Virus record (IMG/VR): IMGVR_UViG_3300020048_006428
Coordinates: 1 to 64,000 of that record
Origin: a virus
Taxonomy: Duplodnaviria; Heunggongvirae; Uroviricota; Caudoviricetes
Reading direction: 5' to 3' (one strand)
DNA length: 64,000 nucleotides
The position numbers and the translations under genes were made by a program. Positions 869 to 63,110 of this stretch are shown piece by piece. The notes beneath the pieces are model-generated. The model did no database searches. It saw nothing but the letters and a program-made list of their open reading frames with translations, and was not told the DNA's origin. The stretch's first letter is position 1; each line of letters opens with the position of its first letter.

Positions 869-2527
869 ATGAAATGGATTAAATCAAGACAAAAATATAT
901 AAACGAAGCTAAAATAGGGGATGTTATTTTACCATCACAGAAAAAAGAAGTAGCAAGTTATTGGGGTGAAAAATATTTAGATTTGGAAGAAGTTGAACCA
1001 ACTAAGAATATAATACAAGGTAAATGGAAATTATCACAAGAAGATAAAATAGAAGCGTTAAATTCATTTTTTAGTATTAATTTAGATTATATGTATGCTA
1101 AATTAGCGGATTTACCAAAACAATTTGCTGATGTTATGAAAAATTCAATTGATGAAAAATCAGTTGATAAGACCAAATTTAATATAAGTGAATTTGATAT
1201 AAACCAACCAACTATAAATCAAATTTCATTATTGAACGAATCAATATTCAAAAAGATTACTGTTAGTGAATCAACAGCAGATGAAGTAATAGTAAGAGAT
1301 GATAATGGAAGACCTTTAATGGACGAAAATAATAGACCAAAGAAAAGAAAAAGAAATAAAGATGAAGTTATATTTAGTAAAAATTTAGTAAATATAAATG
1401 TCTTAATTGAAGATTATAATAAAGTATTCACAAATCATACTATTGATGCATCATTTTTTAATAGTGGTGATATACAAAAAATAATAAATCTATACTGGAC
1501 AGATTTAAATAATGGAAAATTTTCAACAAATATTGATGTATTTGAAAACGATTTATACTTAAAAATAGACCATAATCCAAAGGATATATTAAATATGTCA
1601 ATTTCTAGATTTTTCATTTCTTGCCAACACCTTTACACAGGCGGATATAGAAGTCAATTACTATCAAATGTATTTGACCCAAATACAATACCCGCATTTT
1701 TAGTATTTGATACCCCTATAATGGAAGGTAATCAAGTAATATCAGAACAATTACCATTATGTAGAATGTTAATAAGGGATGTAAATACTGAATATGATGA
1801 TTATGTTGACAAAGATGGAATTTACTTTGATAGAGTTTATCCTGATAGAATGGAAACTGTTATGAATTCAATAGTTACAGACTATAGCGGAAATGAAAAT
1901 ACATATAGTGATAGTAGATATATATTTATGCCAGATTTACCATTTGATTATGATTTAAGTGAACCTTATATGGATAGATTATCAATACGAAATAAAAAAA
2001 TGATTGGAATTAATACCAAAAGATTAGATATAAGTAGTATATATGATTGGAATAATACGTATATATCAAAAAATAATTCTATAAAAGAATTAATAATATC
2101 ATCATTAAATTTACCTGATAATATCTTTAAGTTAAATTTAGATTTAGATTGGATTATAATAAAATACATTCATATAAAATCATTATCTAATTTTGATAAA
2201 ATTAAAGCAAAAAGTTGGTCATTTGAAAAATGTATAATTGATGTAGAAGCAATTGATACCCTATATAATAATAATTCAGATTTAACTAAACTTAAATTTA
2301 TAAATTGTGAAGTTTCAAATTTGGACTTATCAAAATTTGAAACTTTAGAAGAATTACATTTAATATATACAATTGATGATAGCAAGGAAGTTGAAAATAT
2401 AATTAATAATTCAAAACTTAAAAAATTAGTCATTTCAACTGATTTAATGAGTACAAAAGAAGAAAAAAATTACTTTAATTCTTTAAAGAAACATATTAAA
2501 ATAGAAACATTTGGACCTAAAATATGA
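869..2527 (+). CDS. Hypothetical protein with capsid-targeting-like leader, diverged SC..DR.Y..PYMD domain and C-terminal LRR-like region
   Basis: MKWIKSRQKYINE leader; SCQHLY...YFDRVYP...PYMD; LxxLxxxxC spacing at C-terminus. Confidence 0.55.
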   Translation: MKWIKSRQKYINEAKIGDVILPSQKKEVASYWGEKYLDLEEVEPTKNIIQGKWKLSQEDKIEALNSFFSINLDYMYAKLADLPKQFADVMKNSIDEKSVDKTKFNISEFDINQPTINQISLLNESIFKKITVSESTADEVIVRDDNGRPLMDENNRPKKRKRNKDEVIFSKNLVNINVLIEDYNKVFTNHTIDASFFNSGDIQKIINLYWTDLNNGKFSTNIDVFENDLYLKIDHNPKDILNMSISRFFISCQHLYTGGYRSQLLSNVFDPNTIPAFLVFDTPIMEGNQVISEQLPLCRMLIRDVNTEYDDYVDKDGIYFDRVYPDRMETVMNSIVTDYSGNENTYSDSRYIFMPDLPFDYDLSEPYMDRLSIRNKKMIGINTKRLDISSIYDWNNTYISKNNSIKELIISSLNLPDNIFKLNLDLDWIIIKYIHIKSLSNFDKIKAKSWSFEKCIIDVEAIDTLYNNNSDLTKLKFINCEVSNLDLSKFETLEELHLIYTIDDSKEVENIINNSKLKKLVISTDLMSTKEEKNYFNSLKKHIKIETFGPKI

Positions 2528-3972
2528 AATATATAACAAATTTTAATTTATTTTCAATAAATGAAAGTATAAAATCAGATAAAATAACAAATACTTTAAA
2601 TTTTCTATCAAAAGATGGTAAAACAAAATTTTTAAGTGAACTTAAAAGTATATTAAATTCTATTGACTATCCATTATCTGAAATATCAGATGATTTTATT
2701 CAATATTTACCATTAAATAAAGCTAAAAAATTAACAAGTTATAGTGAATATTATTCAGATTCAATATACCAATGGGTAAAATTCTGGTTTAATGTAGATG
2801 GTAATTTTGTTGATAGAACCATAACTAAAAAGACTGATAATGATAGGTATAAAAATACCCTTAATTATGCAAAATCTTATAATAATTCAATTTACCAATA
2901 TTTTGAGAAAAATCCATATTTATATTTAGAAGAAGTACCAGGTTATAATGTTAAAATAAATGATTTAGTAGTAGTAAAAGTTACAAGTACAGATTATAAG
3001 TTTGGATACTACAAATATCTTGAATCAGAAGATTTTTATTATATACAAGAATATGGAACAGAAAACGAAGAACTATCTGACGAAGATTGCTTGGTTCACA
3101 AAGTTAAATCATATGATGACTATTATACAATAGTAGATGGGGGTAATAAACCTCTTAAAGATTATAGAATGGATTATGGTTTATCACATTCTGGATATGG
3201 AAACACTAAAATAGATGATGCTAATTTTGCATTAGTGATAAATATTGATAAATTAATAGGTTCTGATTATAAAAGAAAAGGTGAAATTGAATATAATAGA
3301 TCACGTAGTAAGGAAAATGCTTTAGCTTTAAAATCTAACAGAGATATACAATTTTCAAATTTAAAAAGATATATTAGTAAAATACTAGTTAAATATACAG
3401 ATAGTGATTTAACTAATTTAGATTTAAATGATTTTTTATTACGTTGCTTAGGATATAGATATATAGGTTTATTTATTTTAACAAATAAATATAGAAATTT
3501 AAATGAACTTATAAGATCACTTATAACATATTTAGAAGATAATGATGATTATTATAAAAGAAAAACGATTAATAACTTAAGAGAATCAATTGATGATTCT
3601 TATACATATATAAACAATGCAAATATAACATTTGATTATGCAAGAATAAATCTTAAAAATAAAAAATTAGAATTATTTAATAAAATTGAAGAATTATCTA
3701 AAGTATTCTATGAATATTTCAAAAAAATAAAAATTGATGATATTAGTGATCTTGAATTAATTTATTATAAAATCAAAACTATACATAATTATTACCAAGA
3801 TTCTACTAAAACGATGCAATTTTCAAATAATAATTATATTATGAACTATGCTTTTAATAGTGACCAAAAAAGTTTATATGGTATTATTAATGAAATAGAT
3901 GATAAAACAATTGATAAAATTATTATAGATATTAATCATCTTATTAAACTAATAAAAAATGGAAGATTTTAA
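2524..3972 (+). CDS. Hypothetical protein, putative internal virion protein
   Basis: 482 aa ORF, ATGA overlap with upstream gene, leader MKYITNFNLFSINES. Confidence 0.55.
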   Translation: MKYITNFNLFSINESIKSDKITNTLNFLSKDGKTKFLSELKSILNSIDYPLSEISDDFIQYLPLNKAKKLTSYSEYYSDSIYQWVKFWFNVDGNFVDRTITKKTDNDRYKNTLNYAKSYNNSIYQYFEKNPYLYLEEVPGYNVKINDLVVVKVTSTDYKFGYYKYLESEDFYYIQEYGTENEELSDEDCLVHKVKSYDDYYTIVDGGNKPLKDYRMDYGLSHSGYGNTKIDDANFALVINIDKLIGSDYKRKGEIEYNRSRSKENALALKSNRDIQFSNLKRYISKILVKYTDSDLTNLDLNDFLLRCLGYRYIGLFILTNKYRNLNELIRSLITYLEDNDDYYKRKTINNLRESIDDSYTYINNANITFDYARINLKNKKLELFNKIEELSKVFYEYFKKIKIDDISDLELIYYKIKTIHNYYQDSTKTMQFSNNNYIMNYAFNSDQKSLYGIINEIDDKTIDKIIIDINHLIKLIKNGRF

Positions 3973-9113: not shown

Positions 9114-9665
9114 TTATGCAAATTGTAAAGGCGTATAAGTCTTTATGTCTTTAGTACCACTTTCAGTACCCAAAACATCTAAAGGATTATTTTCTTGTAT
9201 CTTTTTAGATTTTTCTTTGAATTCTTTAAATTGATCCTCATTGAAAACTAAAACCCTACTTTGTCCAGTCTTATTACTTTGTGTTTCTTCTGATGATTCT
9301 TTTACCCTTATTGAATAAAATTTAGACGTATTCACCTTTGACTTCAATATATTGAATATTAATTCTTCTTCAACATCTTTGTCTTTAAATTTAAGTCCTA
9401 ATTTTCTACGGAGTGATTTAAACCAACCTTCATTTTCTACTTTTTCATAATCAGATACTGATATAGTATACTTAATTTTAACTTTTTCTGTTTCTCCACT
9501 ATCTTCAAAATCTTTTTTCAATTTTATTGAATCGTAAATCTGAAAAGCTTTACTGCCCAACCAACACAAGAGTGAAGTAAGAGCTAAACCAATTATAGGT
9601 CCTATAATTAAATCAAATTCTTCATTGATAGAATTAAAATCCTTATATTTTTTAATATGTTTCAT
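9114..9665 (-). CDS. Hypothetical membrane protein with capsid-targeting-like leader
   Basis: MKHIKKYKDFNSINEE followed by hydrophobic IIGPIIGLALTSLLCWLG. Confidence 0.6.
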   Translation of the reverse strand: MKHIKKYKDFNSINEEFDLIIGPIIGLALTSLLCWLGSKAFQIYDSIKLKKDFEDSGETEKVKIKYTISVSDYEKVENEGWFKSLRRKLGLKFKDKDVEEELIFNILKSKVNTSKFYSIRVKESSEETQSNKTGQSRVLVFNEDQFKEFKEKSKKIQENNPLDVLGTESGTKDIKTYTPLQFA

Positions 9666-11116: not shown

Positions 11117-12019
11117 ATGAATATAAGAGAAGTTAGAGATTACTACAATAAAAAACCAATTGAGTTTGTAGTCAAGGATAATTATAACCTTAATGAGGAT
11201 AATCTTTATATTCCTAGATTCCAGCTTAAAAATGTTAAAGAAATCGCTGATATTCCAATTAATAAACCAATGAAAGCATCACAGGATATTATAATAAAAG
11301 CCATTAAATATGGTATGATTTTTCTTATAAGTTACAAAGGTGAAAAAGATACTAGATTTATGGGTTCGGAAAGGGTTATATATCCTATGGTAATTGGTAA
11401 ATCATCTAAAGGTAATATATTAATTAGAGGATATCACTTGAATGGTTGGTCAGTTTCAAATAATAGACACATTGATAAAATATGGAGAATGTTTAGATTA
11501 GATAGAATATTATCAATAACATTTACTGGATCATTTTATAGACTACCACCTGCTGGTTATAATATGGATGATAAAGGTATGCGTGGTGGTATAATAGCTA
11601 AAGCCGATTTTAATGAAATAAGAAAAAATCAACAAACGTTAGTAAAAGCCCAAGAAATTCAAAATAAAGAAGATGTTACATTAGGTGATGAAGAAAGAAA
11701 ATTTGTTACAGTAAAAGCTAGAGTAACAGATACACAATTAGATTTAAATAATCCAATGGATAATGCTTATATTAATAATTTAAAAGATTTAAATATATTA
11801 AGATTATCTTTCTTAAAAAGTATCTATGGGAATGTTTATATTGCTATATTAGGCGCTCTTGGACAACAGGGAAACACAGTTAAGGTAATTAATGATAAAG
11901 GTGGAAATGTTGGTGTATTTAAGGTATTAGATTCAATAGGGGGTGATGTTCTTAAAAAAATAAAAAAAGTTAAAGGTAATGCTATATTTGACCTTTATTT
12001 ATTTGACACGAAAATATGA
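11117..12019 (+). CDS. WYL-domain protein
   Basis: ISYKG...RVIYP...LIRGY...WRMFRLDRILSI matches the WYL pattern. Confidence 0.7.
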   Translation: MNIREVRDYYNKKPIEFVVKDNYNLNEDNLYIPRFQLKNVKEIADIPINKPMKASQDIIIKAIKYGMIFLISYKGEKDTRFMGSERVIYPMVIGKSSKGNILIRGYHLNGWSVSNNRHIDKIWRMFRLDRILSITFTGSFYRLPPAGYNMDDKGMRGGIIAKADFNEIRKNQQTLVKAQEIQNKEDVTLGDEERKFVTVKARVTDTQLDLNNPMDNAYINNLKDLNILRLSFLKSIYGNVYIAILGALGQQGNTVKVINDKGGNVGVFKVLDSIGGDVLKKIKKVKGNAIFDLYLFDTKI

Positions 12020-12429
12020 AATACTTAAAATTATTTGAAAATTTCGAAGAAACAATATTCCAACTTAGGAATGTTCGTGTTATTATGCATATTAATGGAA
12101 TCATTAAATTAAGCGTAGAAAAAGAACATGATAGTAATATTAAAATTTATAATGAAGTCCCAAATGTAGGAGGATATTCTATTATAACATTTAAACAACC
12201 AAGTCTTGATGAATATAAAACAATTTTAGAACCATATGGATATAAAATCACTTATGGTATAACAGGACAACCATTCGAAAATAAAAATGGAGATGAGATG
12301 TTATTTATATTTGACATTGGTGATTATTGGTATATTTTAAGCTATTATGATTTCAAACAATTAAAACAAGAACATTATTTGATAGATGATAAAACAAATC
12401 TAATTAAAAAAATAAAAGAATTAATATGA
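12016..12429 (+). CDS. Hypothetical protein with MKYLKLFENF leader
   Basis: ORF, shared leader. Confidence 0.65.
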   Translation: MKYLKLFENFEETIFQLRNVRVIMHINGIIKLSVEKEHDSNIKIYNEVPNVGGYSIITFKQPSLDEYKTILEPYGYKITYGITGQPFENKNGDEMLFIFDIGDYWYILSYYDFKQLKQEHYLIDDKTNLIKKIKELI

Positions 12430-12992
12430 AATTTTTAAAAAATTGGAAAATATTTGAGAAAACTGTCTTAACAGAGGATCTCTTTAAAAAAGAAGCTGAT
12501 GAATTATATACAAAAATTCAATTTGAAATAGAATCACTACCAAATAATAATCCAACTAAAATTGATTATTTAGATTTTATATCAAGTTTTGGCGAAGGAA
12601 ATTGGTCAGAATCGGATAGAAATAAATTGAAAAAATACCTTAAAATAAAAGGTGTTGAAATGGGATTGATAAATCCTATCGGTGGATATAAAAAAGATAT
12701 ACAATTGACAACTGATGAAACAAAATGGAATAATTATGTCAAAACTATAAAAATTGAAATTGATGATTATATTAAGAATATAAAAGAACAATTAAATGAT
12801 AGAAATTATAAAGCCACTAATCCAGAAGTAAAATCAACTATTTTAGAATTAATTACCCAAATAAAAAAAGAATTATCTAAACTAAATAAAAATAAAATAG
12901 ACAAATCTATTGAAAAAAATATAGACAAATTAAAATTTGATTTGGATAATTCAATTAAAAAATTAGATTTGAAATTTCACATTAAAAAATAA
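12426..12992 (+). CDS. Hypothetical coiled-coil protein with leader variant MKFLKNWKIFE
   Basis: ORF, ATGA overlap. Confidence 0.6.
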   Translation: MKFLKNWKIFEKTVLTEDLFKKEADELYTKIQFEIESLPNNNPTKIDYLDFISSFGEGNWSESDRNKLKKYLKIKGVEMGLINPIGGYKKDIQLTTDETKWNNYVKTIKIEIDDYIKNIKEQLNDRNYKATNPEVKSTILELITQIKKELSKLNKNKIDKSIEKNIDKLKFDLDNSIKKLDLKFHIKK

Positions 12993-13622: not shown

Positions 13623-13811
13623 ATGATAAAAAGTTATAGTAATTATAATGATTATATTGCTGAACGTACAAAGGATATTTCTTATGCTGATTATATTGCT
13701 GAACGTATAATGGGTATTTCTTATGCTGATTATATTTCATCAATTGGGATGATGATATATAGACATTATAAATTAGCTTGTCTATTAGACAAAATAAATA
13801 ACACAAAATAA
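13623..13811 (+). CDS. Small protein with ISYADYIAE tandem repeats
   Basis: 39-bp tandem repeat (about 2.3 copies) encoding DYIAER..ISYA. Confidence 0.45.
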   Translation: MIKSYSNYNDYIAERTKDISYADYIAERIMGISYADYISSIGMMIYRHYKLACLLDKINNTK

Positions 13812-15233: not shown

Positions 15234-15794
15234 ATGAAATACATAAAATTTTTCGAAAAATTCAGAACACAAGATGATACATCTGATTTACTAATATCCC
15301 TATTAGATGCAGGTGATATAGTAGAAATGGCACATAATATATCATACTCCCTCAGGTATAGTCAAATACGATTATCTACGCACTATAAGATAACATTACC
15401 ATCAACTACATTAGAAGAATTGGAAGCTTATTCTAATTTCCTAAATAAATTAGTTAGGCTATGTAAAAAATGGAATCTAATTGTATATTTTCAAGGTATT
15501 CAATTTGAAATAATTCAAGTTTTATATACTGACAATAATGAATTTTTAATAAATTCAACTGGAAATGTGGCTTATATGAGGATGGGGATTAGACTAAACC
15601 CACCTGATAATATATCTATAGATAGTGCAAGTATAAGTTATAATGACAACGAATTATATTTAATAATATATCTTAAAAAAGAGGAGAATAGAAATCCATC
15701 AGAAATAATTGAATTGTTAAATAAGACTGGTGATTATAAAGAAATAACATATTCACAAATTTCTGGTGCATATAAATTAACATACAATATATGA
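15234..15794 (+). CDS. Hypothetical protein with MKYIKFFEKF leader
   Basis: ORF behind TTAATATATA at 15219-15228. Confidence 0.6.
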   Translation: MKYIKFFEKFRTQDDTSDLLISLLDAGDIVEMAHNISYSLRYSQIRLSTHYKITLPSTTLEELEAYSNFLNKLVRLCKKWNLIVYFQGIQFEIIQVLYTDNNEFLINSTGNVAYMRMGIRLNPPDNISIDSASISYNDNELYLIIYLKKEENRNPSEIIELLNKTGDYKEITYSQISGAYKLTYNI

Positions 15795-20124: not shown

Positions 20125-21414
20125 ATGAGACACAATACTAAAAATAAAAATGTTCAAGATGCAAAGCTTAAATATCTTAAAACATTTGAACAGTTTGAAA
20201 TGATAAATGAAGAAGAAGGTTGGAAAGAATGGATGTTAGCTGGTCTAATGACAGTAAGTTCAATATTTGGACCTGGTAAAGCTATGGCAAATACAAGTGG
20301 TGGTCCTGGTAAAGAAATGACAACTATTACAGCCAAATCTGAAAATGCATCAAATATATTTAAAGCCAAAATTTTAAAGGGTTCTACATCAGAAGAAAAA
20401 TGTTATAATGATGTTTTGGTAAAATTTGGCTTAAATACAGAAAGTGGAAGCAGAATTTATAGAGCTAAACTAAGTGATATTGTAAAAGAAATAGGAAAAG
20501 ATAGTACAACTATATTATCAGCATTTAAACCGGCTTCTGCTAAAGACGCGGGTTTATCAGCAGATGATAAATTAATAGATGTGTTTATGATAGATGGTCA
20601 AAAAATAGTTAATGATGGATTTTTAGTTTTTGATATGTCTGATATGAATACTGAAATAATTGCATCTGGAAATGGATTATTGGCTTTAACAAGAGCAATT
20701 AGACAAGCTTCGGATTTCAAATCTTTTGATTATAAAACATTCGTTAAAATTGAATTTAATCAACCAAGGGAATCAAAAGCTATAACAATTGATTTTTCAT
20801 TTTCAAAAGAAGGATTCTACAAACAGTTGTTTTTTGCATTTGAAACTGCAATTACACCAACTTCACAATTTATTGGTGATAATACTTATGCACATATAAT
20901 GGGGGTTGATAAATTAATTGGTGCATCAGAAGAAGAAGCGGTTGAATTTATATATGGAACATTGATAAGTGGTATATTTGACTTCATACCTGGTAAATTA
21001 TATCAAAATGATGTTAAAAATTTACCTAGTTACTTAACATCAAATGGATATGAATTACCAAGCAAAGATATGATAAAAGAATATATTGCTAAATTTAAAG
21101 CAGCTGGTAAAATAGTTGATGCTGATATGACTAAATTTAATAGTTTAGTTCAAGGTCTATATCTTAAAAATTTAAGAAAATTTGCTAATGAAAATTTAGG
21201 CACAAAAGCATCAGATTCTTTAATGAATGAAGTTAAAGAATTTGTTAATAGCAATGCACAATATTCAAAGTGGGAAACAAAATTAGCAGGAACAAGAGCA
21301 CATGCTTGGAATGCTAAAAAAACAGGCGAAAAGCAATATAGAGCAGGTGTTTCTGATACAGAAACTGATGGTAAAACATATAGAATAGGTGAAAATAAAA
21401 AATATAGAAAATAA
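20125..21414 (+). CDS. Putative internal virion protein with LKYLKTFEQF..INE motif and signal-like segment
   Basis: Late motif upstream; motif followed by WKEWMLAGLMTVSSIFGPGKAMA. Confidence 0.6.
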   Translation: MRHNTKNKNVQDAKLKYLKTFEQFEMINEEEGWKEWMLAGLMTVSSIFGPGKAMANTSGGPGKEMTTITAKSENASNIFKAKILKGSTSEEKCYNDVLVKFGLNTESGSRIYRAKLSDIVKEIGKDSTTILSAFKPASAKDAGLSADDKLIDVFMIDGQKIVNDGFLVFDMSDMNTEIIASGNGLLALTRAIRQASDFKSFDYKTFVKIEFNQPRESKAITIDFSFSKEGFYKQLFFAFETAITPTSQFIGDNTYAHIMGVDKLIGASEEEAVEFIYGTLISGIFDFIPGKLYQNDVKNLPSYLTSNGYELPSKDMIKEYIAKFKAAGKIVDADMTKFNSLVQGLYLKNLRKFANENLGTKASDSLMNEVKEFVNSNAQYSKWETKLAGTRAHAWNAKKTGEKQYRAGVSDTETDGKTYRIGENKKYRK

Positions 21415-40122: not shown

Positions 40123-40986
40123 TTATTTTATATCTGAAACTTTTGCGATTATTTCACTTTTTTTCTTTTTAATATCAGCTTTTCCATCATCAGTTTTTCC
40201 AAAACCATATTCATCACCATTTATTTCTTCAATAGACTTAACTGCTACTGTTTCGCTATCATCTTTTTTATCTTTAGCTATCTTTCTTTTTTCATCATCA
40301 CTTAGTTTATTCCAATCATCTTTAGTCTTATCTTTTCTAAGATAAATAACTTCATCCCCCACTTCATATTTAACTTCTTTCTTAGTAGTTAATACATTGT
40401 TTAATTTTGCTTGTAATTGTTTATTTGCTGTATCTCTTGCCTTAATAACTTGTGGTAATACAGATTTATCACCAGCATCTTCTAATGCCTTAATTTTTGC
40501 GTTTAAAACATCTAAATTAAATTGATCCTTTTTAGTATCTATTAATAATTTTAATTGTGGATTTTTTTCTTCACCGCCAAATTTAACTAATATTCTATCA
40601 AAATCTTTCATTGCCATTTTAAAATAAGTGTCTATTATTTGATCTATTAATTTCTTCTTTTCTTTTAATGTTTCCGCATCAATTTTAGTATCCCCATCTT
40701 CAATCTCATCAGCTTCAACTATTAAAGACTCTTTTAATGAAGATGATGCAAAAAGATTTAATTCTATATTAGCTTTCTTTTTAATTTCTTCTGCTATTTT
40801 CTTTTTCCATTCATTATATTTATTTTCTAATTCTTTAGCACCTTTTATACCAGCTAATTTAGACCACATATTTTTAAAAAACTTTCCGATTCCAAATATT
40901 TCTTCATTCATTGGCTCATAAGTGCGAGATTTGCACTTCCTTTCAGAAAAATATTTGAAATTTTCAAATGTTCTTATATATTTCAT
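40123..40986 (-). CDS. Putative internal virion protein with MKYIRTFENF leader
   Basis: Leader, MNEE and LIVE sites, late motif upstream. Confidence 0.6.
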   Translation of the reverse strand: MKYIRTFENFKYFSERKCKSRTYEPMNEEIFGIGKFFKNMWSKLAGIKGAKELENKYNEWKKKIAEEIKKKANIELNLFASSSLKESLIVEADEIEDGDTKIDAETLKEKKKLIDQIIDTYFKMAMKDFDRILVKFGGEEKNPQLKLLIDTKKDQFNLDVLNAKIKALEDAGDKSVLPQVIKARDTANKQLQAKLNNVLTTKKEVKYEVGDEVIYLRKDKTKDDWNKLSDDEKRKIAKDKKDDSETVAVKSIEEINGDEYGFGKTDDGKADIKKKKSEIIAKVSDIK

Positions 40987-42435: not shown

Positions 42436-45108
42436 ATGAAATATATAAAAAGTATAAGTGAGTTCAAATCATATAACGAATCAAATATAAGAAAAGTTCC
42501 ATATAGTAGGGAAATAAAAGTTTATGAAAATGCATTTGAAAATGATATTACTTGGGGTGGGTCTTTATTAGGTAGATTAATAAATTCCACAATTAGATAT
42601 AGCACAGCACAATATAAATCAACAAAAATAAAAGGAATAGTTGCTAAAGTTCAAACATGTTTGGATACATTAGTTGCTAATGTTGCGTTAGATGAAGATA
42701 GTAACAATTCTATTGATAAATTAAAAGTTAAAATGCTTTTAAAAGAAATATATGCTGTTGTTTCAAGTGATTCTGAATTGGATGAAAAATTAACAACATT
42801 ATTGGGTGATAAGACACAAGGGTCAGGTCTTATAGATACAACTATATCATACATAGAAAGTATTGATATTGATAAAAAAGATATATTGATAAAGAAGTTA
42901 GAAGATTTTAAGAAAGCCTTGATGGATATAGACTATAATATAAAAGATGATGATGAAGATGATGAAGATACCAATGATGTTGACCAATCTAATCCAGAAT
43001 TTAAGTTTTTCACTACAAATATAAATCTATTTAAATCAATAATAGGTCTTAATAATGTAATTAAAAATAGAAGAATAAAAATAGAAGGTGAACAAGATAT
43101 TGATAGTGGATATACAACTGCTGACACTTCTGTTGATGATTTTAATGCTTATAATAGAAACCAAAGAAATATTAATAAGAATAAAAAAGTTGATAATAAA
43201 CAGACAACTACAACTAAACCAATTACAACAACCCAAACAAAGAAGCCACCATTTAAGATAACATCAATTGGTAGTAAGGAAGAAGTGGAAGAAGTCAAAG
43301 CTAATGAAAATGTTGAAACCCTAAGAAGTAAAGAAAAACATGCAATAGCTGCTTGGAAAAAAATAATTAAGATATGTAAAGATATTAAAATTGATGATTT
43401 ATCAAAGAAATTAGAAGAAATTATAAATCAAAGTAAATCAGGTGAAAAATTAAATAAAACTGTAGTAATTGCTATTGGTAAGAATATAATATTAAATGAA
43501 GCAACAACTGGTAAACCAATCGGTTATCAAGAATTAATAAAAGAAGAAATGGGTAATATCCCTTCACAATATTCTGATTTACCAAAAAGAATTTCATTTT
43601 TATCTAAAATTTTATTATCATTCAAAGATGATATGGGTTTAATTGGATCACTTGGGGAAGCTATTCAACATATTAAAAATTATATAAAATCATATAACGA
43701 ATTAAAAAATATCTACCCTAAACTTTCTAATAAAAAGTTAGAAAAATTTAATGATTTTAATTTTAAGAAGAATTTAGAAAAATTTAATGATTTTAATTTT
43801 TTAAATGAAAAATTTGATATAAATGATGATTCAACCTATGATAAAGTTCAAGTGGCTTGGTTTAAATTTTTTAATAAAGGTGAAGAAAATTCTTGGAAAT
43901 TAACCAATGAAGATTCTGAATTGAGAGATAAAGTGGAAAATATAGGTGATAAAGAAATACCATTTGATTCCGAATCACATGTAGATAAAATAATGGAAAT
44001 AGTTAATCTATTTGGAAAAGCATATCGATTATATGCTAATAGTAGTATTCCATCTGGTAGACCTGGTGGTAGAGTATCACAAAAAACTTTTAGAGCATAT
44101 ATTTATATTGGAGAACTATCTAGTGGTAGAGGTGGTGATTGGGAAAATGGTGTTGCAAGTGGTGGACCATGGGCATATAAGATAACATTTGAAAAATGGG
44201 AAGATGGTATTACTAAAATATTAGAAGATCCAAAATATAGAAAAGTATTAGCAAACATCAAATTTAAAAATACTGGACCTAATCAAGATCAAGGTTCTGG
44301 TGTTACTGGTAAAGATGGTGGTTATGGTAGTGATGGTGGATCACCAAACAGAAAAATTGTATCCGGTAGATCATTATTTGACTTCATAAATGAAATGATA
44401 AATCCAGAAGGTGGTTTTGCTAAATCAAGACAAAAAATAATGAAAGAATATTTTGGTGGGGTTGATAAACTTACATCAGCAGAAGAAGAAGCAAGAAAAA
44501 AAGAAGAAAGAGAAAGTAAAGAAAATTTACAAGAACCAAAAACTAAAGAAGTTGGTGATAAAAAAGTAATATCATTTGTTAGTGCTGATCGAAATGGATT
44601 ATATAAAGTAGATAATATATCTAAACTAATTGGTAATTTTATTAAAATTAAATATAAAGATAATCATATTATAGCATATGTGATTGGGAAAAAAGAAATT
44701 AATAAAATTGAACATTTGTTAATTAAATTTAATTTTTCTAGTTCCGGTGAAAAACAAAATTTAATATCTAAATATCTATCTAATGATTTAAAAGACAAAT
44801 ATAAAATAACTGAAGAAAGTAAAATAATCGAGGAAAACACTCCATTATATTTTGGTGTTATTCCAGTTTCACAAAAAATATTAAAAAATAAAGATTTGAA
44901 ATTTAAATATGGTAAAGTAACCAATAATAATTTAATAAGTGAGATAAAACTGTTAGATATTAAAAAAATAGAAGAAATTACATTTTTAGCACATTGTCCA
45001 GACCAAGATAAAGTAATATGGAAATTAGTTGAAGTTAAAACCCCACAAAGTAGACTACAATATGACATATCAGATATAGATAAAATAGACTTAACAAAAT
45101 TAATATGA
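42436..45108 (+). CDS. Large putative internal virion protein
   Basis: 890 aa; leader MKYIKSISEFKSYNES; duplicated internal LEKFNDFNF..NE. Confidence 0.6.
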   Translation: MKYIKSISEFKSYNESNIRKVPYSREIKVYENAFENDITWGGSLLGRLINSTIRYSTAQYKSTKIKGIVAKVQTCLDTLVANVALDEDSNNSIDKLKVKMLLKEIYAVVSSDSELDEKLTTLLGDKTQGSGLIDTTISYIESIDIDKKDILIKKLEDFKKALMDIDYNIKDDDEDDEDTNDVDQSNPEFKFFTTNINLFKSIIGLNNVIKNRRIKIEGEQDIDSGYTTADTSVDDFNAYNRNQRNINKNKKVDNKQTTTTKPITTTQTKKPPFKITSIGSKEEVEEVKANENVETLRSKEKHAIAAWKKIIKICKDIKIDDLSKKLEEIINQSKSGEKLNKTVVIAIGKNIILNEATTGKPIGYQELIKEEMGNIPSQYSDLPKRISFLSKILLSFKDDMGLIGSLGEAIQHIKNYIKSYNELKNIYPKLSNKKLEKFNDFNFKKNLEKFNDFNFLNEKFDINDDSTYDKVQVAWFKFFNKGEENSWKLTNEDSELRDKVENIGDKEIPFDSESHVDKIMEIVNLFGKAYRLYANSSIPSGRPGGRVSQKTFRAYIYIGELSSGRGGDWENGVASGGPWAYKITFEKWEDGITKILEDPKYRKVLANIKFKNTGPNQDQGSGVTGKDGGYGSDGGSPNRKIVSGRSLFDFINEMINPEGGFAKSRQKIMKEYFGGVDKLTSAEEEARKKEERESKENLQEPKTKEVGDKKVISFVSADRNGLYKVDNISKLIGNFIKIKYKDNHIIAYVIGKKEINKIEHLLIKFNFSSSGEKQNLISKYLSNDLKDKYKITEESKIIEENTPLYFGVIPVSQKILKNKDLKFKYGKVTNNNLISEIKLLDIKKIEEITFLAHCPDQDKVIWKLVEVKTPQSRLQYDISDIDKIDLTKLI

Positions 45109-45722
45109 AAATTAAAAAATATTTAGATTTTATTGCAGAAAAGTTTCAGGCGGATCAATCCGATCCACCTGAAATGGCATCTGATATGAACACATATAAT
45201 AGTTTAGAAAAATCAATTTCAGATTTCAATCAAAAAAAAGTTGAATTAAGTAATATTTATATGACTTATAAAGATGAAGCTGATTTAATTAACAAATTAT
45301 CAGCTCGTGGGCATATTGAAAAGAAAACAAATAATAAAAAACAAATTAAATTTAATAATCCTGTTTTAGCCTTATGGTCACAATCTTGTGAATTAAGAAG
45401 AAAGATTAAAGATTTAGAAGATGGTATTAAGAATGAAGAAGAAGGTATTAAAAGTGAACAAACTAATATTACAAACAATCAAGGAAATCAAACTATCCAA
45501 GATTCATCAACTTCTAAAATAGACCAATCTAAAGCTAATGTATTAAATAAAAAAAATGAAGTTACTAAATTAAGAAAAGAAATAATGGATATTGAAAAAA
45601 AGGTTAATGATAAGCTAAAACAAATGAAAAATGATTTAAATATATCTAAAAAAAGAATAGACTATTATAAAATTAATAAAAGGTCAGCTTCAACCACACA
45701 AACTGATATAACAAATCAATAA
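45105..45722 (+). CDS. Coiled-coil protein with T4-CTS-like start MKIKKYLDFIAE
   Basis: ORF directly upstream of the sheath gene. Confidence 0.6.
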   Translation: MKIKKYLDFIAEKFQADQSDPPEMASDMNTYNSLEKSISDFNQKKVELSNIYMTYKDEADLINKLSARGHIEKKTNNKKQIKFNNPVLALWSQSCELRRKIKDLEDGIKNEEEGIKSEQTNITNNQGNQTIQDSSTSKIDQSKANVLNKKNEVTKLRKEIMDIEKKVNDKLKQMKNDLNISKKRIDYYKINKRSASTTQTDITNQ

Positions 45723-51492: not shown

Positions 51493-51906
51493 ATGAAAAT
51501 TAGAAAAGTATTTGAAGACACAAATGATTATGAACTTTGTGAAGAAATAAGTTATGAGACATACGAATCTCATATCTGGGTGGGTGAATATGGAGATAAA
51601 CTAATAAGCCTAAAGAATAATATAATTCCAATAATTAAAGAGCAAGAAAAGGAAATATTTGATTATTATTATGGTGTTGGTGGAATGCAACATAATAGTA
51701 GAAGCAAAACTGATTTTTATTCTTTTCATGGATATGAAGTTGATGGATTACATATAATAGTAGAAGCAATTGAAGATTATTATTTCTTAGTTACTATAAA
51801 TACAGAAGAATTTGAAATGTATTTCAAATGTGATGGTGTTGATGGTTTAAAAATGTTATCTAAGAAATTCATAGAAAAATATAAAGATATAAACAATGAA
51901 GATTAA
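51493..51906 (+). CDS. Tandem paralog 1 (MKIRKVFED; start re-assigned to 51493)
   Basis: ATG right after TTAATATATA 51478-51487; CEEISYE...EDYY...FKCD..DGL. Confidence 0.65.
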   Translation: MKIRKVFEDTNDYELCEEISYETYESHIWVGEYGDKLISLKNNIIPIIKEQEKEIFDYYYGVGGMQHNSRSKTDFYSFHGYEVDGLHIIVEAIEDYYFLVTINTEEFEMYFKCDGVDGLKMLSKKFIEKYKDINNED

Positions 51907-52258
51907 AAAAGTTTTTGAAAACATAGATGATGATATTTGTAGAGAAATATCATATGAAGAATATGCAGGGTATTTTGAAAGAGATAAAGTTAAATTATCA
52001 AATAATGATATAGAAACAATAAAATTAGAAAGAAACAAAATATTAGATCTTCTTTTTGAAAATAAAAAGGAAACATATTATTTATTTAGTTGTACAGTAT
52101 ACCATAGTTGTGAAGATTTTTTTCAATTTGAAGTTAATGCTTTAGAAGATTATTTATATTTAGTAAAAATAGAATTGCGTGAAAGATTGTTTACTTATTT
52201 TTTATGTGAAAGAGAAGGTTTAAAAGATATAGCAAGTAGATTTGAATCAAAAGTTTAA
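51896..52258 (+). CDS. Tandem paralog 2 (MKIKKVFEN)
   Basis: First 70 nt identical to paralog 3. Confidence 0.7.
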   Translation: MKIKKVFENIDDDICREISYEEYAGYFERDKVKLSNNDIETIKLERNKILDLLFENKKETYYLFSCTVYHSCEDFFQFEVNALEDYLYLVKIELRERLFTYFLCEREGLKDIASRFESKV

Positions 52259-52272: not shown

Positions 52273-52653
52273 ATGAAGATTAAAAAAGTTTTTGAAAACA
52301 TAGATGATGATATTTGTAGAGAAATATCATATGAAGAATATGGAGAGTATTGTGAAAATGCTGAAGATAACGAAGAGTATGGGAAATTATCAAGTAGCGA
52401 TATTGAAGTTATAAAACAACAAAGGGATAAAATTTTAAATCGTTATGAAGAAACTACAAATTATTCTTATCAAATTTTATGTGATGTCACAGAAAGAAAG
52501 ATTGATAGTTTTTTTCAATTTGAAGTTTATGCTTTAGAAGATTATTTATATGTGACCCTTATGTCATTAGAAAACACCTATAAATATTATTTATGTGAAA
52601 GAGAAGGATTAAAAAATATAGCAGATAAATTTTTAAAGGAATATGAAAATTAA
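52273..52653 (+). CDS. Tandem paralog 3 (MKIKKVFEN)
   Basis: Shared start and FFQFEV.ALEDYLY...LCEREGLK end. Confidence 0.7.
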   Translation: MKIKKVFENIDDDICREISYEEYGEYCENAEDNEEYGKLSSSDIEVIKQQRDKILNRYEETTNYSYQILCDVTERKIDSFFQFEVYALEDYLYVTLMSLENTYKYYLCEREGLKNIADKFLKEYEN

Positions 52654-52671: not shown

Positions 52672-53100
52672 ATGAAAAATATACAAACATTTGAAGGTTT
52701 TTTTACAAATATTAAAAATATTTTTAGAAATCCAAAAACAAAATATACATCAGAGCTAAATAAATATAGCTTAAAATTATCTTATAAAGATAAACATAGT
52801 TTTGATATAAAACATAGTGGTAGATTAGTTGGTGAAATATTACTATCTGATGAAGAATCATCATATCCTATATGGATATTAAATGTTTATTATTATGATA
52901 GTGAAATAAAAAATGTAGACAAAAAACCATCTACAAAAATTGTAGATCAAGATGAACCATATTATGCTAAAAGTTCTAAGAAATATAGAGTTGATTCAGA
53001 TGATGCTTTGAAATCGTTTATTAATTGGTGGTCAAGTAATACTAAATCAGGTAGATTAAAAAATCCTTTATATAAGGCTAAATCAGGAACTAACTTATAA
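52672..53100 (+). CDS. Hypothetical protein with MKNIQTFEGF leader
   Basis: ORF, shared leader. Confidence 0.6.
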   Translation: MKNIQTFEGFFTNIKNIFRNPKTKYTSELNKYSLKLSYKDKHSFDIKHSGRLVGEILLSDEESSYPIWILNVYYYDSEIKNVDKKPSTKIVDQDEPYYAKSSKKYRVDSDDALKSFINWWSSNTKSGRLKNPLYKAKSGTNL

Positions 53101-56070: not shown

Positions 56071-56595
56071 ATGAAATACTTAAAATTATTTGAAAATTTC
56101 TTTGGTGATGAAACTAAAGAAAAAATATTACGCTTTCTTAAATCTGGTGATTTTTCACTTACAATTCAACTTTGCGATGGACAAAATATTGACTTTGATG
56201 AATTTATATATGAATATGCAAAGACTAAAAATCCTGATTTATTAGAAGATGATTACATAAATATTTATGTTAATATATCTAATGATTATATCAAATCTGA
56301 ATATATTTGTATAAGACCAAAAATATTTTGTAATGATGGGTTTAGTTTATCTGTTCAAGGCGCATATGGATCATATTCATGGCCAAGAAAAGATAAAGCT
56401 AATCATTATTCTGAAATGGAAATTGGATTTCCATCTGAAAAAGAACCTATTTTAACTGAATATGGAGAAGACCAATTTGAAGAAGATTCTGATGAATATA
56501 GTGATATTTATCCTTATGTTCCAATTGAACTAATAAATAAAGTGTTATTAAAACATGGTGGAATTGACTATGAAAAAACACTTGGACAAAAATAA
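56071..56595 (+). CDS. Hypothetical protein with MKYLKLFENF leader
   Basis: C.DGFSLSVQ...YS.P...E.GFPS...YVP...KHGG domain. Confidence 0.65.
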   Translation: MKYLKLFENFFGDETKEKILRFLKSGDFSLTIQLCDGQNIDFDEFIYEYAKTKNPDLLEDDYINIYVNISNDYIKSEYICIRPKIFCNDGFSLSVQGAYGSYSWPRKDKANHYSEMEIGFPSEKEPILTEYGEDQFEEDSDEYSDIYPYVPIELINKVLLKHGGIDYEKTLGQK

Positions 56596-56603: not shown

Positions 56604-58112
56604 ATGTTAAAGAAGTATGATGATTTCTTATTAGAATCTTTATTAATGGAATCTATCTTAGTATATTCCGATGATTTTAGAAAAATATTAAAAAATGTTG
56701 AATCACCAATAGCAACTTATTTATTGGATGCAGAAGATGTAGATTTAGAATTATCAAATAATTATATAGATATATCGGATAAACCAAACCAAATATCATT
56801 TATCAGTGATGAAAAAGGACAAAAATTAGCGAATGATAAAAATATTCAATATATCGGAACAAGTATTAACTATTATATAAGTGATTATTTTATAGATGAT
56901 GTTTGTGTTCCACTTGAATTTGATACTAAGGGTAAGTTTCTTATGGAACTACCAGTTAATTCATCAAACGGAACTATTCTAAAAACATTAAATTATGATG
57001 GTAAAATTTATTATAAATGTCAATTTGATGATGATATTTATTTATTAAATAGTGAAAACTCAATGATAATTGGTAAAACACCATTTAATTCAAATAGGCA
57101 GGACATAAAAATAGGAAGAGGAATTAGAGGTATTTTAAACTCTGCTAAAATTAAATATACTGATTCTGAAATAGAAACATTTGTTAATAAATATAAGGCT
57201 GAAATAGATATATTAAATGATCAATTTAATAATTTTGAATTAACAAGTGGTTATGATATAGCATATTGGTATAATAGTAATAGATATTATTCAGATAGTG
57301 GAACATTAGGAAACTCTTGTATGGCTGATGTTAATAGTGGTAGGTTTGATATTTATTGTGATAATCCAGATGTTTGTAAGTTATTGATATTAAAACAAGA
57401 TAAGTCTAAAATAAAAGGTAGGGCATTAGTTTGGAAACTTTCAAATGGTGATACTTTTATGGATAGGGTATATACGAATAATGATAATGATTTTGAACTA
57501 TTCAATAAATATGCTAAATTAAATGGTTGGAAAAGAAAAAAAGCAAATGATAGTTCCACTGATTTTGTGGTGGTTTTACCAAATGGTGAAGAAGTTGATA
57601 GTGGTTCTTTGAAAATTAATATAAAAGGCGGTAGTTTTGATTATTATCCATATTTAGATACATTTTGTTACTATTATTTAAATAATGGAATATTATCAAA
57701 CAGCGATGATTTAAGGGGTGATTATATAACATTATGTGATGCTGATGATGGTAAATGGAATGAATATTGCTATGATTGTGATGAAACAGGCATTACAGAA
57801 TGTGGTAGATGTGAAGGTTATGGAAAAGTAGACTGTGATGAATGTAAAGGTAGCTGTAAAGTAGAATGTTCAGAATGTGAAGGTAGCTGTAAAGTAGAAT
57901 GTTCAGAATGTGAAGGTTTTGGTGAAATAGAAGGAGAAGATGGTGAAATGGTAGAATGTTCAGAATGTGATGGTGATGGTAAAGTAGAATGTTCAGAATG
58001 TGAAGGTGATGGTAAAGTAGAATGTTCAGAATGTGATGGTGAAGGTGAAGTAGAATGTCCAAATTGTGATGGTGATTGTGAAGTAGAATGTCATTGTAGA
58101 GAATCATTATAA
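56604..58112 (+). CDS. SCM/RALVW/DRVY/YPYLDTF family protein with C-terminal CxxCxG zinc-finger repeats
   Basis: Paralog of 24157 and 61401; leader MLKKYDDFLLES. Confidence 0.65.
   Translation: MLKKYDDFLLESLLMESILVYSDDFRKILKNVESPIATYLLDAEDVDLELSNNYIDISDKPNQISFISDEKGQKLANDKNIQYIGTSINYYISDYFIDDVCVPLEFDTKGKFLMELPVNSSNGTILKTLNYDGKIYYKCQFDDDIYLLNSENSMIIGKTPFNSNRQDIKIGRGIRGILNSAKIKYTDSEIETFVNKYKAEIDILNDQFNNFELTSGYDIAYWYNSNRYYSDSGTLGNSCMADVNSGRFDIYCDNPDVCKLLILKQDKSKIKGRALVWKLSNGDTFMDRVYTNNDNDFELFNKYAKLNGWKRKKANDSSTDFVVVLPNGEEVDSGSLKINIKGGSFDYYPYLDTFCYYYLNNGILSNSDDLRGDYITLCDADDGKWNEYCYDCDETGITECGRCEGYGKVDCDECKGSCKVECSECEGSCKVECSECEGFGEIEGEDGEMVECSECDGDGKVECSECEGDGKVECSECDGEGEVECPNCDGDCEVECHCRESL
57796..58095 (+). 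repeat. 33-bp coding tandem repeat (KVECSECxGxx)
   Basis: gtagaatgttcagaatgtga repeated, about 8 units. Confidence 0.85.
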
Positions 58113-59105: not shown

Positions 59106-59542
59106 TGTACACCTAATATTATTTTTGGATATCTAACTATTTTACCATTTATACTATACCCTTTACTTACAACATCTATAATCTTTTGTTCACCAACATT
59201 TAAAATAGAAATAACTTCGTGTATATCTGAATCATAATTTTCAGTTTGAATACATTCTACATTTTGATTTTGTAAGAACTTATCTATTTTAGACATAATC
59301 AATTTAATACCATCATCAATTGTTATGTTTTTTAATGCTAATGATAAATCAGAATCTAAATCTAAGATAGAATTTAAAACATCATTTTTAACTGATGTTT
59401 TAATATCTTCTTTTTCTTTTAAAGTTCTTTTTTTATAATTATCAAACTCTGCTAATAATCTAAGATATTTATCATCTGCTTCTTTTTTTATTAAATCAAC
59501 TTCTTCTATTGAATAAGTTTTAATATCTAAATTTTCTTCCAT
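59102..59542 (-). CDS. grpE: Nucleotide exchange factor GrpE
   Basis: YLRLLAEFDNYKKR, HE, KGY..NGKIVRYPKI. Confidence 0.88.
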   Translation of the reverse strand: MEENLDIKTYSIEEVDLIKKEADDKYLRLLAEFDNYKKRTLKEKEDIKTSVKNDVLNSILDLDSDLSLALKNITIDDGIKLIMSKIDKFLQNQNVECIQTENYDSDIHEVISILNVGEQKIIDVVSKGYSINGKIVRYPKIILGVQ

Positions 59543-61386: not shown

Positions 61387-61400
61387 AAATTTTATATTAT

Positions 61401-63110
61401 CTATACTTTATTAAGTTTATATCTATAGTAAATAAATATTGATAACATTTCTTTATTGTTTGCTAATGATGTTTCAACTATATTTAATAATTCTTCTACT
61501 GACCAAGTCATAATTCCAAACCAATCAAGTAATTCTAAATAACCTACATCTCCTATTAAACTAACAATAAAATTCTTATATGGTGTGATGTCAAATCTAT
61601 TCCTACAATTTCTTAGGTTTAAATAAACATTTACCATTGCTATATTTTTAATACCTACTGTTTTTTGAACTATGTAACCATTATAAATATTTTCAATTCT
61701 TGAAAGAACATTATTAGAAAATCTATATTTCAAAAGATATTCTGCTAATTTTTCAAGTCCATCAATATCCATAGATTGTTCAAATTGTTTTACATTTTCC
61801 TTTGTTTTCAAAATCCATTTGTCTAAATATACATTAAAAAATAATTGTGATTTATGACATAAATATTCTGTTCCATTTATATTAATATTTATTAATAATT
61901 TTATTTCATCTTTATGTGTGTAATCACTATTAAATTCATTATCAATCTTGTCATATAATTCAAATTCTATTGCTTCATCTGCTGGTAAAGAACAACTATG
62001 TATATCTGAATGAACTGATTTATTATAAAGTATATATGTATCCAAATAATCAGAATAAACTATTTGATATGATGTTGAAAGATAGTATTCACCTTCGGAT
62101 TCAACAAAAACTGCTTCACCATCAGGCACCCAAGATTGAACATCAACACAATAAACTGCATCATTTGAATCTACTTTTAGATCAAATTCATTTGAGTAAA
62201 CTTGACCTGAGCTTGATAGCCCATTTGTCTGTCTTAATCTATTTTGTCTATTTTCTTCATTTGTTATTTCATATGTTTTTGGATAATATGCTTCAAAAGT
62301 GTCCATATATGGAAACATTTTATAATCATATTTTTTTAATACAACTTTCATATATTCCCTATTATCAGAATCATAAATTTTCATATTATTTTCTTTTGCA
62401 TATTCCAAAAATAAATTTGCATCAGAATCATAATTACAATATATCCTATCCATATAATACTCACCTGTTGATAATTTCCAAATCAATGCTCTTCCAACAA
62501 TCTTATTTGGATTATCTCTTTTTAAGATTAAAAGACTACAAACTTCTGGATTTTTTGTATAAATGTCAAAAAACATTTGACATTTTTTATATCGCATACA
62601 AGAATTACTTAAATCACCTGTTTTTTCTTGGTAATTATCTACCAAATACCATTTTTTAATTTCATCACCCTTAACCAATTCAAATGATGATGAACTATAT
62701 ATTTTATTAAATGTAGATTTATATAAATTTACAAAAATAGGCAATTCCTTACTTGGAAAATCTGTTAATACTTTATTTACAAATCTACCTATTGCAATTT
62801 CAGATCTTTGTTTTTTCCATAAAGTATGATTTGAATCACTCGTAACAACTTCTAAATTCTTATCTATATCTTCTTCCCCTAATGTATTTACAATCCTATT
62901 TACTTGTATAAAAGATACTGAATTATCCTTATCTGTTATATCAATTAATGTAAAGTCTTTTTTATTATCCACATCATTTTCTATATCCAATAACTTATTA
63001 GTTATTGGATTATCAATCATTTTGAATAATTCTTTTAATTTAGTGGAATAAATTAATGGTAATGTTTTTATACTTTCTAAAAACAACTCGTAATTTTTAA
63101 TATTTTTCAT
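61401..63110 (-). CDS. SCMRY/RALIW/DRIY/PYMDTF family protein with leader
   Basis: Paralog of 24157 and 56604; MKNIKNYELFLES. Confidence 0.65.
   Translation of the reverse strand: MKNIKNYELFLESIKTLPLIYSTKLKELFKMIDNPITNKLLDIENDVDNKKDFTLIDITDKDNSVSFIQVNRIVNTLGEEDIDKNLEVVTSDSNHTLWKKQRSEIAIGRFVNKVLTDFPSKELPIFVNLYKSTFNKIYSSSSFELVKGDEIKKWYLVDNYQEKTGDLSNSCMRYKKCQMFFDIYTKNPEVCSLLILKRDNPNKIVGRALIWKLSTGEYYMDRIYCNYDSDANLFLEYAKENNMKIYDSDNREYMKVVLKKYDYKMFPYMDTFEAYYPKTYEITNEENRQNRLRQTNGLSSSGQVYSNEFDLKVDSNDAVYCVDVQSWVPDGEAVFVESEGEYYLSTSYQIVYSDYLDTYILYNKSVHSDIHSCSLPADEAIEFELYDKIDNEFNSDYTHKDEIKLLINININGTEYLCHKSQLFFNVYLDKWILKTKENVKQFEQSMDIDGLEKLAEYLLKYRFSNNVLSRIENIYNGYIVQKTVGIKNIAMVNVYLNLRNCRNRFDITPYKNFIVSLIGDVGYLELLDWFGIMTWSVEELLNIVETSLANNKEMLSIFIYYRYKLNKV

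Follow-up and report, generated by a model that had tools for sequence, protein, structure and literature searches.

The internal proteins of T-even phages are diverse, and have only a capsid targeting sequence (CTS) in common (PMC3012670). In T4, the CTS is an N-terminal tag of 8–20 residues found on IPI, IPII, IPIII and Alt, proteins that are otherwise unrelated (Mullaney and Black 1996, cited in PMC8442874, PMC3012670 and PMC5694885), and has the sequence MKTYQEFIAE (PMC8442874). A comparable arrangement is seen in IMG/VR virus record IMGVR_UViG_3300020048_006428, a single 276.4-kb viral contig (G+C 25 %, completeness ~47 % as estimated by CheckV), the first 64 kb of which (positions 1 to 64,000) form the stretch analysed herein, referred to as the window. 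Contig-wide counts are based on the 356 genes called on the full 276.4 kb, and approximately one gene in seven of this phage carries a T4-CTS-like start, hereafter the tag. An earlier note on the window had proposed that this is a generic head-packaging tag, and after testing this is still the best-supported reading; that the attached proteins are packaged, matured and injected with the DNA, as was also claimed, is wholly something that we infer. On balance, and with modest confidence, the shared N-terminus is best viewed as a T4-type capsid-targeting propeptide that serves a far larger set of cargo.

The tag has a core of hydrophobic-K/R-x-aromatic-x-x-F and occurs in two forms, with the main form being MKYLKLFENF and the second, T4-like form being M.IKK[YF]xxF[ILV]xE. 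With a position matrix built from the motif itself, and a strict threshold of 10 bits, 43/356 N-termini are recovered as opposed to 3/79,423 internal windows, and the scores are bimodally distributed. The core, written as [LIVM][KR].[YF]..[FY], lies within the first 8 residues of 47/356 proteins, which is a 34-fold excess over internal positions; for the longer pattern [KR].[YF]..F[ILV].E, which six genes fit, N-terminal enrichment reaches 171-fold. The 23 starts listed in the earlier note are all ATG codons of open reading frames (ORFs) with the N-termini described, and the motif is present in each, although two require comment. The frame at 51493 has its own TTTTTAATATATA box directly upstream, but is nested in a longer ORF beginning at 51427, whilst in the protein starting at 20125 the motif begins only at residue 15, a Leu encoded by CTT. 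As this codon is not a start, an alternative start at 20167 was ruled out. Seven of the listed starts (869, 12426, 24157, 29458, 42436, 45105 and 56604) fall below the strict matrix threshold, with 45105 and 56604 being members of the second, T4-like class.

The description of the protein bodies as unrelated is largely right: with the tag removed, 49 tagged proteins resolve into 33 groups that are unrelated by BLAST, and the 23 tagged genes of the window represent ~17 distinct body families. The tagged genes are partly non-independent, in that one leucine-rich repeat (LRR)-like paralogue family accounts for 12–13 genes and is the largest group, and that the window contains the paralogue sets 34337/35601, 51493/51896/52273 and 24157/63110. 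The absence of the leader from several enzymes is also borne out, with the tag lacking from an IMPDH/GMP-reductase family (guaC-like) protein (36150-37103), the RNA ligase (28066-29139), DnaJ and the C5 methylase (58212-59105), as well as from GrpE. Outside of the gene-caller set, the contig harbours an extra full LRR paralogue of 196 aa (genome 110203-110790, minus strand). Two short ORFs of 47 aa (genome 249915-250055, minus strand) and 31 aa (genome 251908-252000, plus strand) also bear the tag, and are probably remnants of tagged genes.

Conservation of the tag acts at the level of the protein. Its residues are constant despite synonymous changes (AAA/AAG, TTA/CTA/CTT/TTG, TTT/TTC, GAA/GAG), both within this genome and between genomes, and those substitutions that do occur are conservative (F/Y, L/I, K/R). 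In the family of the tagged 209-aa protein at genome 72181-72810, M-[RKQ]-[YH]-[IL]-K-x-[FY]-E-[NSD]-[FHY] is kept in 117/117 sampled standard-length homologues, and the five residues that follow as a linker are variable. An AlphaFold2 model of this protein, built from a 49-sequence alignment, assigns residues 1–15 a confidence (pLDDT) of 41 and shows a confident alpha/beta fold for residues 19–209. A tag that is conserved yet disordered bears the signature of a short linear motif. Within the body of the same family D24, K94 and C178 are invariant in the alignment, and Foldseek gives a weak likeness to nicotinamidase/isochorismatase-type cysteine hydrolases (best E = 0.017) that is a hint only; an isochorismatase identity, being without Pfam support, was set aside.

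The tag also behaves as a separate module. The LRR paralogues 190924 and 207391 begin directly at the body, with no tag, and in gene 20125 the tag lies 14 residues inside the protein. Amongst IMG/VR contigs, exact MKYLKLFENF is found in 56 stretches, where it heads bodies of widely differing kinds, whilst 596 Gb of genome sequence from bacteria and archaea contain no match; a looser tag pattern returns only scattered single matches in cellular genomes. These results rule out a host sorting signal. A composition artefact is similarly ruled out, both by the internal-position controls and by the cultured relative PTm1 (30 % G+C, with a fused protease-scaffold of like kind), which has no recurrent N-terminus and holds the core in 4/310 ORFs. 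The hydrophobic core of 10–20 residues after a basic N-terminus that characterizes Sec, Tat and lipoprotein signal peptides is absent from the tag, which is followed by E/N/D-rich sequence and differs from genuine signal peptides of the genome, such as MKKLLFVLTVFTIFMASC.

When applied to T4 as a positive control, the core pattern retrieves 5/262 ORFs, namely ipI, ipII, ipIII, gp61.1 and gp38, and the longer pattern retrieves ipII, ipIII and gp61.1 only. The T4 tag fits the second tag form of this phage at every constrained position, whilst the main form fits only the core pattern and not the longer one. In the 45105 tag, MKIKKYLDFIAE, which the earlier note had described as very close to that of T4, the core spacing of K-x-aromatic-x-x-F is followed by [ILV]-x-E. 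As a separate observation, the hypothetical T4 protein gp61.1 (54 aa; NC_000866 18966-19130, minus strand) starts with MKTFKEFIKED, which is almost the ipI start (MKTFKEF...) together with an I-K-E site; judging by this likeness, it may be an overlooked tagged protein.

Glutamate-containing motifs are concentrated at the end of the tag. Within the first 16 residues, [LI]FE[NST] shows an enrichment of 20-fold in this phage and of 26-fold in the relative LR756501, the tag of which is otherwise different (MIKKFKLFES); the corresponding values for [LIV]NE are 3.5-fold and 4.9-fold. Control motifs, in which D or K replaces E, or in which the motif is reversed, display no such N-terminal excess. Amongst 37 tags defined by their core from residues 1–7 only, 27 have [LIVF]-x-E-[polar] at residues 5–18, compared to 18 % of other proteins, and the same pattern occurs in an internal window of just 2/37 of these tagged proteins. 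Those tags without Glu8 have a site some residues later, e.g. SINES, SINEE, FLES, IVES or LNED. The pattern I-K-K-[YF]-x-x-F-[ILV]-x-E is common to the 11 homologues of the 45105 protein; I3, K4 and F9 are invariant and E12 nearly so, and the position separating [ILV] from E is unconstrained, as would be predicted for an L/I-x-E site.

The tag-end motifs [LI]-F-E-[NS] and [ILV]-N-E recur in the capsid propeptide and protease–scaffold junction of the phage itself, as well as in T4 gp22, gp23 and gp68. The N-terminal region of the capsid protein contains WMSELAE-YHSINE-N (WMSEYAE.H.[IM]NEN in relatives), and the junction reads MSSINESF, with [IL]NES kept in relatives. In T4, [LI]AE[NSTKQ] and [LI]FE[NSTE] are most concentrated in the scaffold gp22, which has 7/24 of those in the proteome, whilst the gp23 propeptide holds KIFEN and gp68 holds SINEN. 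The sequence L-T-E65 in T4 gp23 (NC_000866) agrees with the L/I-x-E rule, this protein being cleaved after residue 65.

The partners that such a tag would require are encoded on the contig. The protease domain of the 718-aa protease-scaffold protein matches Peptidase_S77/gp21 (PF03420) at 29.3 bits, above the cut-off, and phrog_207 with E = 2.6e-31. Adjoining it is a gp23-like major capsid protein, identified by phrog_138 and by tblastn matches to T4-like capsid genes; neither the capsid protein nor the protease gave a match when searched by sequence against the PDB. The C-terminal part of the protease protein comprises 13 tandem, near-perfect 14-residue repeats, AYSEY[LI]AE[NST][LV]DKNI, followed by an acidic stretch and then a conserved C-terminal domain. 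These scaffold repeats are kept in six relatives, LR745206, LR756504, LR756501 and three tag-positive IMG/VR genomes (348–676 kb), and the homologous gene of PTm1 is annotated as 'prohead core scaffolding protein and protease'. Every repeat holds [LI]-A-E, which is the L/I-x-E form of the T4 gp21 site, and because each therefore has a putative protease site the scaffold may be chopped into 14-mers. Elsewhere in the proteome, the best match to the scaffold-repeat matrix is the 62-aa ORF at 13623..13811, absent from the starts listed in the earlier note; its repeats make it a candidate small component of the prohead core, in the manner of T4 gp67 or gp68.

The contig additionally encodes a portal (phrog_213), a gp13-like head–tail adaptor, a baseplate wedge protein and a 1283-aa tail sheath. 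By virtue of these genes, together with the gp23-like capsid protein and gp21-type protease, the contig is on gene content a fragment of a huge phage of the T4 superfamily. This phage is most closely related to the uncultured huge phages LR745206 and LR756501-4 (634–735 kb, Lac Pavin-type), with Lak phages, the Tenacibaculum phages PTm1 and pT24, and T4-like cyanophages being more remote. The host is probably a member of the Bacteroidota.

With regard to expression, TAATATATA, often as TTTAATATATA, lies 4–30 nt upstream of 89 genes across the whole contig, with examples at window 15220-15233, 24143-24156 and 63111-63125. It precedes the portal, gp13-like adaptor, baseplate wedge and sheath unit, and is absent before six replication genes (DNA polymerase, helicase, clamp loader, RNR, SbcC and UvsX), and is probably a late promoter comparable to the TATAAATA of T4. 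The statement that almost all tagged genes follow this element, or are co-transcribed with a gene that does, is confirmed by the finding that units headed by TAATATATA hold 48/52 tagged genes compared to 123/304 others (odds ratio 17.7, Fisher p = 4e-13). From the promoter motif alone, the tagged genes would be expressed together with those of head morphogenesis.

If the tag is a T4-type capsid-targeting propeptide, then it would be a short, exposed, amphipathic peptide made late in infection, by means of which the protein that carries it docks at the scaffolding core, where the gp23-like shell assembles. A gp21-type protease would subsequently cleave at [LI]-F-E, [ILV]-N-E or [ILV]-x-E, the Glu that precedes the cut lying within the tag or shortly beyond it, and the cargo would be left inside the head, ready for delivery with the DNA. 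Docking, cleavage, virion residence and injection of the tagged proteins are all steps that we infer, and a number of observations weigh against them. All tag-carrying relatives are uncultured, and a cargo of at least 52 types, in what is about half of the genome, is without precedent, given that T4 has three internal proteins plus Alt. The cargo is acidic, with a median isoelectric point of 4.8, whereas the T4 internal proteins are basic. Furthermore, the ipII/ipIII sequence was already known when the patterns for the T4 control were drawn up, meaning that only the ipI match is independent.

The putative cleavage sites themselves present a further difficulty for capsid targeting. The consensus tail of [ILM]xE given in the earlier note applies to part of the set, but many tags have T, K or N three before the Glu, and 10/37 core-defined tags are without any [LIVF]-x-E site. 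A Leu three before Glu8 is found in less than half of main-form genes, no other position in the main tag being so poorly conserved, and the 72181-72810 family has T, L, I, V, H or A there. Such poor conservation is contrary to the L/I-x-E rule of T4, indicating either that the cut is made elsewhere or that specificity differs. In addition, the scaffold-repeat matrix gives the main tag form only negative scores, and no co-variation of tag and scaffold is seen across lineages, with LR756501 having the same repeats and a different tag. The strong form of scaffold mimicry by the tag was accordingly rejected, there being a weak rank shift (p = 0.002) and the matrix mainly picking 13623-13811 and 45105. 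Two IMG/VR records (G001 and G002) that are tag-rich and have no protease or capsid matches were considered as counter-examples; as fragments on which no capsid gene of this kind is present, they carry no information in this respect.

Each of the alternative explanations for the tag accounts for fewer observations than does T4-type capsid targeting. The nearest of these would have the tag as an uncleaved docking peptide by which interchangeable proteins plug into some other phage structure or hub, for instance the outside of the capsid, the head fibres, the tail or baseplate, or a platform for assembly, and do not enter the head interior. An exposed, conserved short linear motif on late proteins is what one would expect in this case, LRR-like proteins, a typical binding module, form the largest tagged family, and the poorly conserved position before the conserved Glu suits binding better than cutting. 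However, a ferritin, a hydrolase-like enzyme, and small acidic and membrane-segment proteins are improbable surface decorations, whilst simple docking explains neither the specificity for Glu, with no D or K excess, nor the resemblance of the tag to that of T4 internal proteins and to protease-substrate motifs; it is thus considered unlikely. A role in the folding, timing or turnover of accessory late proteins in infected cells, with the tag serving as a chaperone or regulated-proteolysis signal for phage DnaJ/GrpE, or for ClpS together with host Clp, draws on the presence of DnaJ, GrpE and a ClpS homologue in the phage, and on the basic and hydrophobic character of the tag, which is shared by many such signals. 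Nevertheless, no ClpP was found in the 276-kb fragment, and ClpS requires a free N-terminal F, L, Y or W, none of which is presented by the tag. The conserved acidic Glu is also contrary to the preference of DnaK, the binding cores of which disfavour acidic residues. As the likeness to T4 internal proteins and the motifs shared with capsid and scaffold would also be left unexplained, we hold this possibility to be distinctly improbable.

A role for the shared start in the mRNA, either as a translation-initiation feature or as a recombination cassette spread across late-gene 5′ ends, would dispense with any function for the peptide. Codon use in the tag (~43 genes, e.g. window 12022-12024) is indeed odd, with Tyr3 being TAC in 61 % of cases compared to 9 % genome-wide, and Asn9 being AAC in 63 % compared to 13 %, whilst in the bodies of tagged genes C-ending codons are below average; A/T-rich starts, moreover, generally favour initiation. 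This bias could stem from shared descent, from translational selection at the start, or from a need to avoid AT runs that resemble promoters. Conversely, the residues survive synonymous changes and substitutions are conservative, one of the tags is located 14 codons into the gene, and PTm1, at 30 % GC, is without such starts. Promoter and ATG are separated by anything between 4 and 28 nt, indicating that no block has been copied, and overall an mRNA-level origin appears very improbable. Least credible is a leader for a modifying enzyme, akin to those of ribosomally synthesized and post-translationally modified peptides, with one maturase serving many precursors: a conserved, disordered leader fits this pattern, but the 276-kb fragment, which is about half of the genome, has no radical-SAM domain (PF04055), the cargo is large and folded (up to 890 aa), and no single co-occurring enzyme was identified. 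We accord it almost no weight.

The tagged genes of the window, and the other features referred to above, are listed in Table 1. Pfam and PHROGs provide nothing for most tagged proteins; specifically, no Pfam family was matched by the ORF at 869..2527, and the 890-aa ORF at 42436..45108 had no family match in Pfam or PHROGs, and none in the Protein Atlas. A membrane-like segment lies right behind the tag in 9114 and 234669, and probably also in 20125 and 27549, with the 20125..21414 ORF being a paralogue of 234669-236075. For the ferritin-like protein, nearly all homologues amongst the 120 matches listed possess an N-terminal extension and lineage-specific tags, with 2 lacking the extension. 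Phage ferritins constitute a large metagenomic family, in which a conserved core sits behind extensions of 20–60 residues; these are very variable, often QAQ-rich or acidic, and are headed by tags that differ between lineages.

Table 1. Tagged genes of the window and associated features. Coordinates are window positions unless marked as genome.
Coordinates	Strand	Product	N-terminal tag	Remarks
869..2527	+	552-aa ORF	MKWIKSRQKYINEAK (weak; Y-I-N-E type)	TAATATATA box 24 nt upstream
2524..3972	+	482-aa ORF	MKYITNFNLFSINES (without Glu8)	S-I-N-E-S at residues 11-15; co-transcribed with 869
9114..9665	-	183-aa ORF	MKHIKKYKDFNSINEE	Then transmembrane-like segment, residues 19-36
12016..12429	+	137-aa ORF	MKYLKLFENF (consensus)	
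12426..12992	+	188-aa ORF	MKFLKNWKIFEKT (weak)	
13623..13811	+	62-aa ORF of scaffold-like repeats		NDYIAER, SYADYIAER, SYADYI
15234..15794	+	186-aa ORF	MKYIKFFEKF	TAATATATA box 5 nt upstream
20125..21414	+	429-aa ORF	LKYLKTFEQFEMINEEE (from residue 15, nt 20167)	Then hydrophobic segment
24157..25797	+	546-aa ORF	MKNLSNYNEFSLKES	Paralogue of 61401-63110 and 121556-123337
27549..28031	+	160-aa ORF	MKNIKTFEQFKNEE	Then Gly/Ala-rich hydrophobic stretch
29458..30027	+	Ferritin-like protein	MQIKKFLKES	Starts 36-aa N-terminal extension; Pfam domain residues 37-169
34337..34831	+	164-aa ORF	MKHLKLFENF	Paralogue of 35601
34837..35604	+	255-aa LRR-like family member	MKYLKLFENF	YSINPDGSIDV...
35601..36134	+	177-aa ORF	MKYLKLFENF	
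40123..40986	-	287-aa ORF	MKYIRTFENF	TAATATATA box 15 nt upstream
42436..45108	+	890-aa ORF	MKYIKSISEFKSYNES (weak)	First in late unit containing tail sheath gene
45105..45722	+	205-aa predicted coiled-coil hairpin protein	MKIKKYLDFIAE (T4-like)	
51493..51906	+	Small ORF	MKIRKVFEDT	First of three tandem paralogues; own TAATATATA box
51896..52258	+	120-aa paralogue	MKIKKVFENI	
52273..52653	+	126-aa paralogue	MKIKKVFENI	
52672..53100	+	142-aa ORF	MKNIQTFEGFF	
53137-54165	-	DnaJ, full		J, CxxCxGxG and C-terminal domains
56071..56595	+	174-aa ORF	MKYLKLFENFF	
56604..58112	+	502-aa ORF	MLKKYDDFLLES (T4-like)	
59102-59542	-	GrpE		
61401..63110	-	569-aa ORF	MKNIKNYELFLES	TAATATATA box 4 nt upstream
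genome 69733-69939	-	ClpS homologue		63.9 bits; behind late-type promoter
genome 72181-72810		209-aa protein	Tagged	1157 database homologues; 120 best-listed at 63-74% identity
genome 88884-91040		718-aa protease-scaffold protein		Outside window; N-terminal gp21-type prohead protease, first 222 residues

No description of the tag strings, or of capsid-targeting tags in huge or jumbo phages, was found in full-text searches of the published literature. Similarly, we could not find in print a related tag in a distant huge-phage branch, its presence on ~1 gene in 7, the types of cargo, or the fused repetitive scaffold. More broadly, it is possible, albeit still somewhat doubtful, that huge Bacteroidota phages belonging to this clade load their heads with dozens of proteins, amongst them enzymes, LRR binders, ferritin and proteins that insert into membranes, by means of one universal T4-derived tag and deliver them with the DNA; the number of tagged cargo proteins per full genome would then probably be about a hundred. 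Were the tag to work as in T4, sequence only would suffice to list which proteins are brought into the cell by uncultured huge phages, and ~1 gene in 7 would be virion cargo, which would bear on the role of orphan genes in phages of 300–700 kb. Injected proteins would be the earliest to arrive, and could encounter host defences at a point when no phage gene has yet been expressed. The T4 targeting rule (a basic residue, two aromatics three apart, and a Glu site) would likewise be ancient, extending across distant branches of the T4 superfamily, and the tag could serve as a general packaging handle.

Amongst known systems, the cargo-loading peptides of encapsulins are similar to the tag in being short, disordered and terminal, and, as is proposed for the tag, they guide cargo of many kinds, ferritin-like proteins amongst them, into a shell of the HK97 fold. 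Unlike the proposed targeting tag, however, they are usually C-terminal, have another sequence, involve no protease, and bind the shell directly, the shell in question being a cellular compartment.

The phiKZ-like phages (SPN3US, 201phi2-1 and phiKZ) are, as here, giant phages with a gp21-related protease, and many of their head-internal proteins are processed after Glu (PMC5694885, PMC7411985). Some of the mature forms begin with a membrane segment, as in the SPN3US ejection protein gp47 (PMC5694885), which would also be true of 9114-9665 and 234669-236075. Despite this, they belong to a different phage lineage, and their propeptides are mostly 80–160 residues in length, are cut at S/A/G-x-E, and do not share one short tag. 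In the present phage the conserved part is 10–17 residues and the fold begins from approximately residue 19, as opposed to a propeptide of ~100 or more residues with S/A/G-x-E.

The closest correspondence is to T4, although the two systems are not identical. At least 52 genes are tagged in half a genome here, compared to a handful in T4, and in the main form, MKYLKLFENF, the Glu is part of the core and the residue three before it is often neither L nor I. The putative cargo of this phage is acidic and includes ferritin, a hydrolase-like enzyme, LRR proteins and proteins with membrane segments, and its protease is fused to the scaffold. Conversely, MKIKKYLDFIAE and MLKKYDDFLLES have the same K-x-aromatic-x-x-F core as MKTYQEFIAE, to which the second form adds [ILV]-x-E. 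As in T4, the tagged genes share a genome with a gp23-like shell, a protease of the gp21 family and a helical scaffold in which [LI]AE/[LI]FE motifs abound; to judge from their promoters, the tagged genes would also be expressed late.

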